A DNA stretch of 64,000 nucleotides, from the NCBI GenBank assembly GCA_964016885.1, contig OZ024740.1, positions 88,474,001 through 88,538,000 on the forward strand. The letters are read 5' to 3'. A program made the translations under genes and the position numbers. Within the stretch, counting starts at the first letter, position 1, and the number at the start of each line of letters is the position of its first letter. A model generated the notes under the pieces. That model did not search any database. It worked only from the letters and a program-made list of their open reading frames with translations, and was not told the origin of the DNA. This document shows, in pieces, positions 20,572 through 50,670 of the stretch. Origin of the DNA: Eledone cirrhosa (Eukaryota).

Positions 20572-21534
20572 TAATAAGGAAATACAAGTCAACAGATTAA
20601 AATTTACTTCATTTATTCATTATATAATCGCTGAAATAGATTCTAACCTGTTGACCTGTACTTCCTCACTATATATGCATATATATGTATATATATATAG
20701 TTACACTTTTTCTCTCGACTGACCTCTTCCTCGCACTTCCACTCACTCACTCTCTGTTTCTCCCCTTCTCACTTCCTCCCGTTCGCTAGTAGTGGGGTTC
20801 CTTCTTTCTCACACCGCATTCACGGCGTACGGTCTGCTTCTCTGACCGCTCATGAAATTCACCCAGCTTATGCTGATCGGATAACTATCATGTGGCTTGC
20901 TGTTTTCCAACTTTCGGTTTGCTTTTCCTTCTGTTGTTTACTTGTCTCACTCGCTTTACGCGTTTCACTTGTCCCAATAGCTTATTTTAGTTATTGCTCG
21001 CACCAACCTGAGGTATCTTATTTTTAATGCGATGAAATACCTATGATGGTTGGCAAAATCACTGATGAGAGACTAATTTTATAATATGTAATCCATGTGC
21101 AACCATGCAGTATTCTTCTCCCCTTGGTTTTTCATATATATATATATATATATATATATATATATATATATATATATATATATATATATATATATATATA
21201 TGTATATATATATATATATATATATATATATATATATTGAAACAAAATGAAAACGAAATTTCATTTCTCACTCTTAGTATGGCACTTACTTAAATGTAAG
21301 TATGCATGTATACGTACATACATATATGTATACAGACGTACAGTAGCATGCACACATATATATATATATACATATATACATACATATGCATACAGGTACA
21401 CATACATATATGCACGTATCAGTTTAGCGGCGCTAACGTCGCTTTGTTCGTTTGTAAACAAACTGAACAGCCTGAATTTATGCAATACGGTGTTAAGGCA
21501 ACCACGTCACCTTTTTGTTCAACACTGACACAGG

Positions 21535-21579
21535 AACGATGTACTAGTTTCAAGCTTGTTAGCTATCATCAGCACCGTT
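21535..21579 (-). ncRNA. Minimal type I hammerhead ribozyme (also at 22001-22045, 22467-22511, 22933-22977)
   Basis: aacggtg-CTGATGA-tagctaacaagctt-GAAA-ctag-TA-catcgtt: 7-bp stem I, short stem II, palindromic ACTAGT stem III, GUA cleavage triplet. Confidence 0.88.
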
Positions 21580-23534
21580 TACCCATCTGCCAGATAGTTG
21601 AACGTTCGAAAGTATATACTTTCCTTATGAAAATTAACGGCTGAGCAGCCTAATTTGCATATTGAGTGAGTTAAATCGGTCAGGCATACCGAAAACGATA
21701 AATTGAAACAAAATGAAAACGAAATTTCATTTCTCACTCTTAGTATGGCACTTACTTAAATGTAAGTATGCATGTATACGTACATACATATATGTATACA
21801 GACGTACAGTAGCATGCACACATATATATATATATACATATATACATACATATGCATACAGGTACACATACATATATGCACGTATCAGTTTAGCGGCGCT
21901 AACGTCGCTTTGTTCGTTTGTAAACAAACTGAACAGCCTGAATTTATGCCATACGGTGTTAAGGCAACCACGTCACCTTTTTGTTCAACACTGACACAGG
22001 AACGATGTACTAGTTTCAAGCTTGTTAGCTATCATCAGCACCGTTTACCCATCTGCCAGATAGTTGAACGTTCGAAAGTATATACTTTCCTTATGAAAAT
22101 TAACGGCTGAGCAGCCTAATTTGCATATTGAGTGAGTTAAATCGGTCAGGCATACCGAAAACGATAAATTGAAACAAAATGAAAACGAAATTTCATTTCT
22201 CACTCTTAGTATGGCACTTACTTAAATGTAAGTATGCATGTATACGTACATACATATATGTATACAGACGTACAGTAGCATGCACACATATATATATATA
22301 TACATATATACATACATATGCATACAGGTACACATACATATATGCACGTATCAGTTTAGCGGCGCTAACGTCGCTTTGTTCGTTTGTAAACAAACTGAAC
22401 AGCCTGAATTTATGCCATACGGTGTTAAGGCAACCACGTCACCTTTTTGTTCAACACTGACACAGGAACGATGTACTTGTTTCAAGCTTGTTAGCTATCA
22501 TCAGCACCGTTTACCCATCTGCCAGATAGTTGAACGTTCGAAAGTATATACTTTCCTTATGAAAATTAACGGCTGAGCAGCCTAATTTGCATATTGAGTG
22601 AGTTAAATCGGTCAGGCATACCGAAAACGATAAATTGAAACAAAATGAAAACGAAATTTCATTTCTCACTCTTAGTATGGCACTTACTTAAATGTAAGTA
22701 TGCATGTATACGTACATACATATATGTATACAGACGTACAGTAGCATGCACACATATATATATATATACATATATACATACATATGCATACAGGTACACA
22801 TACATATATGCACGTATCAGTTTAGCGGCGCTAACGTCGCTTTGTTCGTTTGTAAACAAACTGAACAGCCTGAATTTATGCCATACGGTGTTAAGGCAAC
22901 CACGTCACCTTTTTGTTCAACACTGACACAGGAACGATGTACTAGTTTCAAGCTTGTTAGCTATCATCAGCACCGTTTACCCATCTGCCAGATAGTTGAA
23001 CGTTCGAAAGTATATACTTTCCTTATGAAAATTAACGGCTGAGCAGCCTAATTTGCATATTGAGTGAGTTAAATCGGTCAGGCATACCGAAAACGATAAA
23101 TTGAAACAAAATGAAAACGAAATTTCATTTCTCACTCTTAGTATGGCACTTACTTAAATGTAAGTATGCATGTATACGTACATACATATATGTATACAGA
23201 CGTACAGTAGCATGCACACATATATATATATATACATATATACATACATATGCATACAGGTACACATACATATATGCACGTATCAGTTTAGCGGCGCTAA
23301 CGTCGCTTTGTTCGTTTGTAAACAAACTGAACAGCCTGAATTTATGCCATACGGTGTTAAGGCAACCACGTCACCTGTGAGAAATGAAATTTCGTTTTCA
23401 TTTTGTTTCAATTTATCGTTTTCGGTATGCCTGACCGATTTAACTCACTCAATATGCAAATTAGGCTGCTCAGCCGTTAATTTTCATAAGGAAAGTATAT
23501 ACTTTCGAACGTTCAACTATCTGGCAGATGGGTA

Positions 23535-23579
23535 AACGGTGCTGATGATAGCTAACAAGCTTGAAACTAGTACATCGTT
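23535..23579 (+). ncRNA. Minimal type I hammerhead ribozyme in the inverted unit
   Basis: Same motif read directly on the + strand. Confidence 0.88.
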
Positions 23580-23995
23580 CCTGTGTCAGTGTTGAACAAA
23601 AAGGTGACGTGGTTGCCTTAACACCGTATGGCATAAATTCAGGCTGTTCAGTTTGTTTACAAACGAACAAAGCGACGTTAGCGCCGCTAAACTGATACGT
23701 GCATATATGTATGTGTACCTGTATGCATATGTATGTATATATGTATATATATATATATGTGTGCATGCTACTGTACGTCTGTATACATATATGTATGTAC
23801 GTATACATGCATACTTACATTTATATATATATATATATATATATATATATATATATGCATATATATATATATATATATATATATATATATATATATATAT
23901 ATACAAATAATATATTATATATATACATTTTTATATATGTATATATATTTATATATATATATATATAGATATAGATATGTACACACACACACAAA

Positions 23996-48692: not shown

Positions 48693-48729
48693 TCTCTCTC
48701 TCGCTATATATATATATATATATATATAG

Positions 48730-50072
48730 TGGTAGAACACTGGAAGGTAATATCCCTAGTGGTAGAGCACTCAGTCCATGGGACTAGTTAGGTAGAAGTG
48801 GTTACACAACAGTTAGTTCACCATACCGAGAACAATTGTTTCACTTTAGCGGATCCTCAGCTCGTAATGGACATGGTTATACGGAACAGGAAAGACACCC
48901 GTATGAACGCGCATGCTTAGAAACGGTCACTTCACTCAGGCAATACTAAATTGCGTGCGACATGTTTAAGGGAGATAACTGCGAAAGTCCGAAAGTTTCT
49001 AGTTGATAAGAAAGTTAGGATGTTTTTATGATTCAATCCTGAGCTTTATAGTTATGCAAGAGGTGTTTCCAGACGTGTGGACAACGTGTGAAGAATTCGA
49101 TTCTTCAGTTTAGGCAATCGCTATTGCGTAATCTCTTTAGAATATTTATTCGTTCATCAATACATAGTCCACACGACGGATTTGCCCTTGCGCATGGCTT
49201 GGACCTAGTGATGGCTTTCTATTGAATGGAGTAGTCTATACTTGAGTCCTTCAGGGACCATACAGGGCTCACGAGTTTCGTGGATGAACGTCTGTCCGGG
49301 TACCTAAAGTTCGACTAGTGGTTCTGGAAGCGTTCCTTCAATCGGCTCTCCACCATACCCACATAGGATTTGACCTCCTGAGGTTGATTTGGTCGGTTGG
49401 AAGTGACCACAGCTTCATAAACTACAGCTGGTGTGTTGCATTGCTGTTGAAAGGGACAAGCTTCGTGCTTACGGCAAGAGCACCCTAGTGGTGTGTTGCT
49501 CTTAGGGCTGTTGGTGATGTGGGCCTTCATGTTCTTAGCGCAGGAGTATCCTAGTTTTACTTTGTGTCGGTTAAAGATGGAGCGGTATTTATGACCTATG
49601 GGAACGTGTCTATCTAAGAGGGCTAGACATTTTTTGCCTACATTGGTTTTAATGTTGAGTGAGAAGGGAGGAGAGAACCAGATAGTTGGTCTATTGTTAC
49701 GCTTTCTTTTCTTAATGCTGTTGTTGTTAGTCGAAGAGTAAGTGATAGGTTGCTTGAAGCTGTTGTTAGCTAACGCTGTGTTATAGTAGGGTGCCGCTCT
49801 GTCAAATATAGCCTTATTAGGTTTGAGATTCTAGTACTGATATTATTTACGAAATACTAGAATCTCAAACCCCTCCTCTAATAAGGCTATCAACAACACC
49901 AATAAGAAAAGAAAGCATAACAATAGACAAACTATCTGGTTCTCTCCTCCCTTCTCACTCAACGTTAAAACCAATGTAGCCCAAAAATGTCTAGCCCTCT
50001 TAGCTAGACACTTTCCCATAGGTCATAAATACCGCTCCCTCTTTAAGCGATACAAAGTAAAATTAGGATACT
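48730..50072 (-). mobile_element. Penelope-like element 3' remnant (RT-EN linker plus GIY-YIG endonuclease) with inverted 5' duplication
   Basis: TIWFSPPFSLNIKTNVGKKCL..RH.P.GHKYRSIFNRHKVKLGYSC; CSC..CP...C..VVYEA..YVG..LKERFQNH (ORF 49315-49530); 49880-50072 is an inverted copy of about 49545-49730. Confidence 0.88.
48827..48864 (-). ncRNA. Hammerhead downstream of the Penelope ORF (pseudo-LTR)
   Basis: cgag-CTGAGGA-tccgctaaagt-GAAA-caattg-TT-ctcg; stem II weak. Confidence 0.68.
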
Positions 50073-50074
50073 TA

Positions 50075-50670
50075 ATTTTATATGTTCTGGCTCGTTAATT
50101 TATTAACCTGCCATAGAACCACATTGGATTACGGTTGGATAATACTTGTATCCCTATATGTATTTTTTACACGTAGGAACACATACTTTATTGTTATTAA
50201 TGCCCCCTAATTTTTGAGATAAAATTTTGGTCGTTTGAACTGCTGCTATTTCTAGTGGCAGGACATTGACCTGTCCGCCCTTGCCTTCTGTCTTTAGACA
50301 CGGCACTAGACAAAATTGGTCCCTTCCTCATTCACTCTCATCCGGGAACAGTTTTGTATGGCGCCAGTTTGTGATTTGAACTCGGGAATTTTATATTCTC
50401 CGAGCAAAAAGAACCATCTGACGAGAATCCCCTTTTCAATGGTGGTCCGCCTGGATTATCCATTTATTTTGGGATTTGAAACCGCGCGGTAAGGGTGTAT
50501 ATAGTAAGTACAGCGAACTTTTAAAATTTATTAAAACAATTTTTCTCTATTTGCAAAACTTTGATTTTATATGTTCTGGCTCGTTAATTTATTAACTTGC
50601 CATAGAACCATATTGGCATACGGTTGGATAATACTTGTATCCCTATATATATTGTTTACACGTAGGAACC
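50075..50670 (+). repeat. About 490-bp unit with ~105-bp terminal direct repeat (partial tandem)
   Basis: ttttatatgttctggctcgttaatttattaac... at about 50076 and 50565. Confidence 0.85.
50413..50496 (+). ncRNA. Type I hammerhead with expanded stem II
   Basis: accat-CTGACGA-gaatccc...gggattt-GAAA-ccgcgcgg-TA-agggt; palindromic stem III; one mismatch in stem I. Confidence 0.78.

Follow-up and report, generated by a model that had tools for sequence, protein, structure and literature searches.

Type I hammerhead ribozymes have been described in Penelope-like elements (PLEs), where their palindromic helix III and cleavage as dimers are in print (PMC4209133; reviewed in PMC6765202), and in the non-coding animal retrozymes (PMC7229834), for which a PLE origin was put forward in a preprint (Li et al. 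2026, bioRxiv 10.64898/2026.07.22.740005). The role of the hammerhead in PLEs was stated to be unclear by Craig et al. (2021, PMC8557442), and the copying of animal retrozymes is presented as an open question by Li et al. (2026). Here, we analyse a stretch of 64,000 nucleotides from Eledone cirrhosa (contig OZ024740.1, positions 88,474,001 to 88,538,000, assembly GCA_964016885.1; hereafter the window), whose TA-rich part holds 14 transposon insertions, each with all or part of a hammerhead motif. With a probability of about 0.85, we read it as a nest of Penelope-type insertions into (TA)n: six are coding PLEs truncated to their 3' ends, and six are tandem non-coding repeats that likely depend on the enzymes of such elements, every family having a predicted hammerhead of its own; two further insertions were assigned to neither class. 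The classes themselves are published and the families found here are new members of them. The notable point is their number, estimated at a few hundred thousand hammerhead motifs in this 3.0-Gb genome.

The locus shares many aspects with the PLE hammerheads reported by Cervera and de la Pena (2014, PMC4209133), such as the type I organisation, the palindromic helix III, the U3-A8 variant and a high diversity of families, as well as the predominance of single motifs from truncated PLEs and of opposite-strand pairs 100-700 bp apart. The palindromes are longer here (6-12 nt), and the motifs far exceed the 2,000-9,000 per genome given in that account, which used other descriptors. Metazoan non-LTR (long terminal repeat) retrozymes (PMC7229834; Li et al. 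2026) likewise consist of non-coding tandem units of 300-560 bp with one type I hammerhead each, and co-occur with PLEs as they do here. On other aspects, the two differ: those retrozymes are described with target duplications, whereas the present elements have PLE ends, with two fixed starts, an inverted arm and a TA target. A kinship with PLE pseudo-LTRs (pLTRs) is reported by Li et al. (2026), whereas no match was obtained here against seven coding copies.

Two descriptors were applied to the window. The first requires a CTGANGA or TTGANAA core, GAAA, NUH, helices I and II and a self-complementary helix III; the second, more general, admits a hairpin as helix III and makes a stricter demand on helix I. 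The first retrieved 12 motifs, against means of 0.013 and 0.04 in dinucleotide shuffles of 200-nt and 1000-nt blocks (150 shuffles each, maximum 1) and none in the reversed window, and the second retrieved 11, against a mean of 0.05 in 60 shuffles. Combined, they define 13 type I hammerheads with CUGANGA and GAAA cores, NUH and the helix order I-III, all within 21.5k-50.5k (k, thousands of nucleotides of the window). Four belong to a family that we call A, at 21572, 22038 and 22970 (-) and 23542 (+), and nine to other families, at 24185 (+), 28746 (-), 29241 (-), 29807 (+), 31532 (+), 31706 (-), 31998 (-), 48860 (-) and 50418 (+), the last with one mismatch in helix I. The type I organisation is incomplete at 31175, 48437, 42.1k (an A13C change) and 43.0k, and no type-SGC hammerhead (order UH, GAAA, CUGANGA) with 4-bp helices occurs in the window (shuffle mean 0.23). 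The hammerheads proposed in a first-pass annotation of the same letters are therefore real, and their clear excess over shuffled controls extends to the genome sample described below. Eight of the ten sites which it considered live pass at least one descriptor; those at 31.2k and 48.4k fail in the window, yet belong to families with better copies. Its mostly palindromic helix III is retained for the 12 self-complementary motifs and gives way at 31706 to a 4-bp hairpin (ACAG/CTGT).

Covariation points in the same direction. In a set of 27 different 43-nt motifs, for which only the core letters and the loop served as selection and no pairing rule was imposed, 88.6% of the cells are paired, against 70.5% after shuffling and 23-44% in slid controls. 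Ten of the 14 helix pairs vary on both sides, including the palindrome (ACTAGT/ACGCGT), and helix III of another family, J, presents a compensatory change (GATC/GCGC). The core letters and a compensated C3-G8 or U3-A8 pair are kept across unrelated families: the first descriptor, which demands one of the two pairs, has 74 matches in the genome sample, 67 with C-G and 7 with U-A.

By following each family into longer genomic copies, we found a frame with reverse transcriptase (RT) and GIY-YIG domains upstream of the hammerhead for the 24.2k, 28.4k, 31.5k, 42.1k, 43.0k and 48.8k families. Two are of Neptune type (24.2k, 42.1k), three of Hydra type (28.4k, 31.5k, 48.8k) and one belongs to a further clade (43.0k). 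Pfam recognises RVT_1 and GIY-YIG on a 775-aa frame of the 24.2k family and RVT_1 on the 43.0k frame, with no match on the Hydra frames. Loci L143, L244, L247, L309 and L310 display the PLE layout, namely a partial tandem pLTR, an inverted 5'-truncated copy and a tail at one end.

The insertion at 23993..24355 is the fold-back 3' end of a young Neptune-type coding PLE, with a U3-A8 hammerhead (TTGAAAA...GAAACCGGTA) at 24185 (+) and a damaged core in the - arm. Over 153 nt, it shares 98% identity with the end of a copy whose 775-codon frame encodes RT and GIY-YIG; of 30 loci retrieved with the GIY-YIG C-terminus, 27 have the core 1,015-1,363 nt behind it. In full copies, a frame of 409-410 codons overlaps the 775-codon frame, repeats that bear the hammerhead lie on either side, and an inverted copy precedes the element. 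Six of the 775-codon frames are mutually 98.6-99.6% identical. The motif had been regarded as decayed; with intact frames and a TTGAAAA core that is the U3-A8 covariant of schistosome PLEs (PMC4209133), it is a known variant in a young element.

Neptune-clade PLEs are marked by a GTAMG motif. The CX2-5CxxC linker, DKG, GxKF and upstream ORF1 (ORF, open reading frame) are present in the Neptune-type copies, whose clade is set by motifs, and are described for that clade by Craig et al. (2021), together with the overlap of ORF1 and the RT-endonuclease frame, the microsatellite target and the partial tandem with inverted copy and tail; tails of 50-145 nt are found here, against the 30-40 bp usually described. 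Neptune-type PLEs with ORF1 and an intact 775-codon frame exist in many copies (L243-L248, e.g. C2:151606000-151615999). They constitute a candidate active element and a candidate partner of the non-coding families.

A second Neptune-type PLE has its fold-back 3' end at 41790..42268, where the U3-A8 core bears GCAA in place of GAAA (A13C). It is 84-86% identical to the ends of two ORF-bearing loci (L313, L317), and the protein of its family is 53% identical to that of the 24.2k family. Of the 17,204 matches to the 24.2k/42.1k pattern, the first 100 listed include 21 with A13C, and the change is subfamily-wide and fixed in some thousands of copies. This core (42095-42165) offers a natural test of the need for cutting.

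The insertion at 42495..43206 is the 3' end of a coding PLE with RT, CX4CxxC linker and GIY-YIG; it includes the final 22 codons of the frame and a weak hammerhead at 42966 (+). Its family has a 4,147-bp tandem period, ORF linkage in 24 of 46 loci, and weak helices I and III throughout. We take this PLE to be Nematis-like, with no clade assigned; the name Naiad was considered for its RT and ruled out by the C-terminal endonuclease. The features which had passed for decay at 42.1k and 43.0k are thus mostly typical of their families and not specific to the window.

The Hydra-type insertion at 28330..28522, absent from the first-pass annotation, is a fold-back 3' end whose two arms hold only the 3' half of a U3-A8 hammerhead, with a hairpin helix III and a GUC site; the whole motif is present in L062, and an untranslated region of 1.55 kb is common to L319, L062 and L190. 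The stub at 31468..31645 (+), with a hammerhead at 31532 (helix III ATATGTAT), is 82-84% identical to hammerhead-ORF-hammerhead copies (L310, L312). Both owe their Hydra label to similarity. The third, at 48728..50072 (-), is a 5'-truncated coding PLE with a hammerhead at 48860 (helix III ACAATTGT), a remnant of RT thumb, linker and GIY-YIG at 49036-49830, a 3' end at (TA)n and an inverted piece at 49847-50072. Assigned to its clade by motifs (DKT, CxCX5C, CxH and RWR for RWK, with a (TA)n target), it agrees with the Hydra-clade PLEs of PMC8557442, including Hydra-1_Obim of Octopus bimaculoides, in the RT with C-terminal GIY-YIG, DKT, RW[KR], CxCX5C and CxH, the (TA)n target and the hammerhead behind the ORF. 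In a comparison by eye, its protein resembles that of Hydra-1_Obim, while the element is a different family and its hammerhead departs from the corresponding row of File S2. The suggestion that this lineage had no annotation of such elements holds only in part, since an Octopus Hydra PLE with a hammerhead and a (TA)n preference is already catalogued (Craig et al. 2021, PMC8557442).

Further hammerhead families occur outside the window (L054:7110, L072:2041, L098:7310, L140:556 and L165), some with U3-A8 motifs and 12-nt palindromes (ACAAGGCCTTGT); a family with AGTACT lies ~400 nt behind another Neptune-like endonuclease.

The evidence that joins coding and non-coding insertions comes from their ends. 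In every family examined, the 3' ends abutting (TA)n cluster at two preferred positions separated by 40-145 nt. The distances from the motif to the first (TA)5 are 13/93, 76/142, ~42/~136, ~18/~87, 53/~197, ~215/~266 and ~110/~155 nt in seven families, and the long end is followed by TA-rich sequence in 29 of 33 cases at 24.2k and 20 of 24 at 48.8k, against a background of 5.4%. The same test carries no information for two patterns, that of 31.7k (0 of 18), which stopped short of the end, and that of the short end of family A (n=2). Back-to-back arms have the same geometry in coding and non-coding families. Two fixed 3' ends at (TA)n and back-to-back arms are the signature of the PLE tail: tail and inverted copy are described for PLEs (PMC8557442) and are explained by two internal RT start sites and the cutting of both strands (PMC11167929). 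The microsatellite targeting which had been proposed is supported, in the form of PLE-type insertion into (TA)n with two fixed ends. It is mainly on the ground of this shared geometry that the non-coding families are likely mobilised by PLE enzymes; mobilisation by a Penelope-like RT, as first supposed, is an inference from the end geometry, and no sequence link to the seven coding copies was found.

Six families (A, B, 28.7k, G, H and J) share the retrozyme organisation: they consist of tandemly repeated units of a few hundred bp, non-coding and each with a type I hammerhead. Their periods are 466 (A), 467 (B), ~325 (28.7k), ~446 (G), ~556 (H) and 483-489 bp (J), those of G and J being drawn from one other locus each, and the ORFs upstream of these families are chance ones at scattered distances. 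Family A occupies 21238..23823, with 4.6 tandem units on the - strand (21238-23376), a back-to-back arm on the + strand (23377-23823) and (TA)n on both sides. Besides the four hammerheads listed above, whose helix III is ACTAGT, it holds a fifth at 22504 (-) with a broken palindrome (ACAAGT). The base of helix II has a U.U, as in HHR_Amex2 of the axolotl. The arm ends lie 53 nt apart in the unit, and the five units and the inverted arm are within 0-2 nt of one another, which is what a single event would leave. At 80%, the family A unit matched no contig in three contig sets guessed to be RNA, and was found in one other run.

Family B, whose unit is related to that of A, spans 28984..30130, with a - arm at 28984-29416, a + arm of 1.5 units at 29418-30130 and hammerheads with a GUC site at 29241 (-) and 29807 (+); its arrays reach 31 units elsewhere in the genome. 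The 28.7k family (28610..28965, -; periods of 323-327 bp) has a hammerhead at 28746 with helix III ATGCAT and a helix I of 3 bp, against 6-7 bp in L418/L419. Family G (31860..32397, -) has a hammerhead at 31998, with helix III ACATTAGTGT and a GUC site. Family H (47296..48695) has back-to-back arms and a long helix II; its window motifs at 47420, 47946 and 48437 are all damaged, the palindrome of the last being mutated to ACTAATCAGT, and intact copies exist elsewhere in the genome, including an array in L095. Family J (50072..50669, +) comprises 1.2 copies of a 489-bp period and a hammerhead at 50418 with a long helix II and helix III ACCGCGCGGT, replaced by ACCGATCGGT in L299.

Four of these families have another element in common. 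The exact octamer ATGCAAAT stands ~90-100 nt upstream of the core in 33 of 39 copies of A, 7 of 10 of B, 22 of 38 of 28.7k and 6 of 7 of G, where it also precedes the window hammerhead, and in none of 219 copies of five coding-linked families and the 31.2k family (0.009 expected). It is a candidate internal promoter.

The two insertions assigned to neither class are the fold-back 3' ends of long elements. The first (30871..31419) has a weak hammerhead at 31175 (+), with helix III ATGATCAT, a helix I of 3 bp and an irregular helix II; at least 1.5 kb of upstream sequence is common to its copies, and L416 has a 2,072-bp period. The second (31646..31840), with the hammerhead at 31706 (-), belongs to an abundant element whose copies share ~700 nt upstream.

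The abundance of these motifs was assessed in two ways. Nine exact patterns gave 136,778 genome matches, with none for the nine reversed patterns. Whole-core patterns account for 49,214 (A 11,968; B 9,318; 24.2k/42.1k 17,204; 43.0k 10,234; 28.7k 490) and 3'-half patterns for 87,564 (31.5k 22,666; 31.7k 30,612; 28.4k 33,450; 31.2k 836). In eighty evenly spaced 10-kb stretches (800 kb) of contigs C1-C7, mostly C1-C3, a sample that excludes the smaller contigs, the first descriptor found 74 motifs (shuffles 1, 0, 0, 0, 0, 0) and the second 89 in 30 stretches (shuffles 2, 1, 1, 3, 3), of which a few look spurious and ~27 come from two arrays. Tandem non-coding families provide 41 of the 89. Extrapolation leads to 3.3x10^5 motifs (bootstrap 1.9-5.1x10^5), or ~110 per Mb, and ~2.0x10^5 insertions (1.3-2.7x10^5). 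Tracts of (TA)6 or more number 18 per 10 kb in 20-52k, against a sample median of 9, and 7 of the 80 stretches match the motif density of the middle of the window, which is therefore rich and not unique.

For the axolotl, 126,247 type I motifs are reported (PMC7229834) in 28.21 Gb, i.e. ~4.5 per Mb under different descriptors, and the giant squid annotation lists 235 Hammerhead_1 loci (PMC6962438). Literature searches returned no comparable cephalopod census, and Lunse et al. (2017), Dfam and Repbase may already hold some of the families. The Rfam comparison advised with the first-pass annotation gave no match in the window at the gathering score; as these thresholds miss all the window motifs, counts of hammerheads in genomes of this kind probably fall well short of the true number. 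Among the Rfam matches listed (150 of 309), only the 29.2/29.8k pair touches Hammerhead_HH9, at 34.9 and 33.3 bits against a gathering score of 52; the microRNA matches were set aside as microsatellite artefacts.

By analogy with PLE biochemistry (Frangieh et al. 2024, PMC11167929), the GIY-YIG domain would cut a TA tract on both strands, and the RT would prime from both DNA ends at two internal RNA start sites; the two resulting arms, one long and one short, would meet head to head. The abundance of hammerhead-bearing stubs would follow from most arms stopping within 50-300 nt. For Poseidon_Ac, two internal RT starts likewise define the tail, both strands are cut and extended, and uncut RNA is the insertion substrate; that work was done in vitro, whereas the present proposal is drawn from genomic ends and covers other clades and non-coding passengers. 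The non-coding units would be transcribed as multimers, in four families from the likely octamer promoter, and the palindromic helix III would let two hammerheads cut as a dimer. The monomers would then form circles, on which a PLE RT would go round repeatedly and so deposit ready-made arrays. Reverse transcription round a hammerhead-cut RNA circle would best explain the near-identical multi-unit arrays with PLE ends, and retrozyme cutting and RNA circles have been shown for coral, mussel and axolotl (PMC7229834). Cutting is probably not part of the insertion step itself. Only 13 of 348 arms in five families start within 5 nt of the predicted cut, a rough count since some references are fold-backs, and no pile-up of insert ends was seen there; the inserted cDNA thus mostly reads through the cut site, in line with the uncut RNA that serves as substrate for Poseidon_Ac (PMC11167929). 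Families with A13C or weak helices are widespread in the genome. Comparing homodimer and heterodimer energies was discarded as evidence of selection: self-pairing is favoured, but any palindrome does that.

Several points weigh against this reading or against the motifs themselves. The covariation rows represent about three related families and offer support rather than a probability. Single motifs fold only weakly better than shuffled sequence (z from -2.3 to +0.3 in 11 of 12 stretches; the twelfth, at -3.9, spans an inversion junction), so that minimum-energy folding is uninformative at this scale, and the lack of Rfam matches counts on the same side. The longer copies of the 31.2k and 31.7k families present no convincing ORF linkage, leaving both in neither class. 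Seven non-coding units showed no homology at E<0.05 to seven coding PLE copies, out of a far larger PLE set in the genome, and families H and J and a 310-bp family have no octamer. Exact truncation points are rough, some of the reference copies being fold-backs. Long arrays could also arise by DNA recombination after insertion, and in Xenopus, 8 of 9 tested retrozyme dimers remained uncut in vitro (Li et al. 2026).

An alternative that we hold unlikely but worth keeping in sight is that most of the motifs do not cut and are either relics or folding signals, preserved for their shape or for binding a protein. It would account for the fixation of A13C in some thousands of copies, for the family-wide weakness of the 43.0k helices and for arms that read through the cut site, and hammerhead mutants did not impair insertion in vitro (PMC11167929). 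It fits poorly with the catalytic core letters and the compensated C3-G8/U3-A8 pair kept across unrelated families, and with the cutting of related retrozymes in vitro (PMC7229834).

An improbable alternative considers the tandem non-coding families as pieces of coding-PLE pLTRs, turned into local minisatellites by DNA recombination and devoid of an RNA cycle of their own. Such a route is proposed by Li et al. (2026), and arrays of up to 31 units would suit it. The arrays are nonetheless dispersed over thousands of loci with the same two ends against (TA)n, the inverted arm is identical to the array at its boundary, and none of the seven coding copies compared matches a non-coding unit.

The first-pass annotation had regarded all the elements as separate, non-autonomous, self-cleaving retroelements. 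Most are indeed short and without ORF in the window, and six families are tandem non-coding units. As a general account it is very unlikely and, for six families, refuted: 6 of the 14 insertions run, in longer copies, into RT and GIY-YIG frames at a fixed distance, the 43.0k element retains its last 22 PLE codons, and those at 24.2k, 31.5k, 42.1k and 43.0k, like the missed 28.4k, are truncated 3' ends of coding PLEs from three clades. Chance matches in AT-rich sequence, to which the weak folding scores and a few spurious sample motifs (1-3 in shuffles) might point, are practically negligible given 13 motifs where no more than 0.05 are expected, exact copies in the thousands with null reversed controls, and covariation.

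Going beyond the Penelope-type nest, we raise a broader and rather doubtful proposal: this would be the most hammerhead-dense animal genome found described (~3x10^5 motifs, ~100 per Mb, ~25x the axolotl density), supplied by three PLE clades and their retrozyme passengers. Cutting might then be essential for the non-coding circles, with their canonical cores, family-specific palindromic dimer codes and own octamer promoter, and dispensable for coding PLEs, as the A13C family and the crippled-helix family at thousands of copies would suggest. The young Neptune-type PLE, the Hydra families, the passengers with mapped starts and the core variants form a panel for the study of cutting, dimer specificity and trans-mobilisation.

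Arm junctions fall inside the hammerhead in two families: at 28.4k, 18 of 20 pairs are spaced 38-71 nt (first 100 listed matches), and at 31.7k, 24 of 27 partner distances are 15-47 nt. In such families with a hairpin helix III, the folded ribozyme may make the RT stall, or a short palindrome at that place may join the arms.

Other repeats share the neighbourhood. At 30200-30763, an abundant 580-bp repeat lies between TA tracts; it occurs in 11 of the 80 sample stretches at ~91% identity, and no hammerhead was found in it. The 3' part of a LINE, presumably RTE-like, occupies 25924-26402, also between TA tracts, and similar copies abut TA tracts in several loci, which indicates a second retroelement type on the same target. 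A non-LTR element, which we take to be R4/Dong-like, combines RT (Pfam RVT_1) with the pattern of a restriction-like endonuclease at the C-terminus; it is found at 7198-10611 (+) and 43943-46100 (-), adjoining (AAT)n or (CTA)n tracts. The outer parts of the window (1-17500 and 60506-64000) hold several LINE copies, mostly broken, in which Pfam recognises an APE endonuclease (Exo_endo_phos) and an RT (RVT_1).

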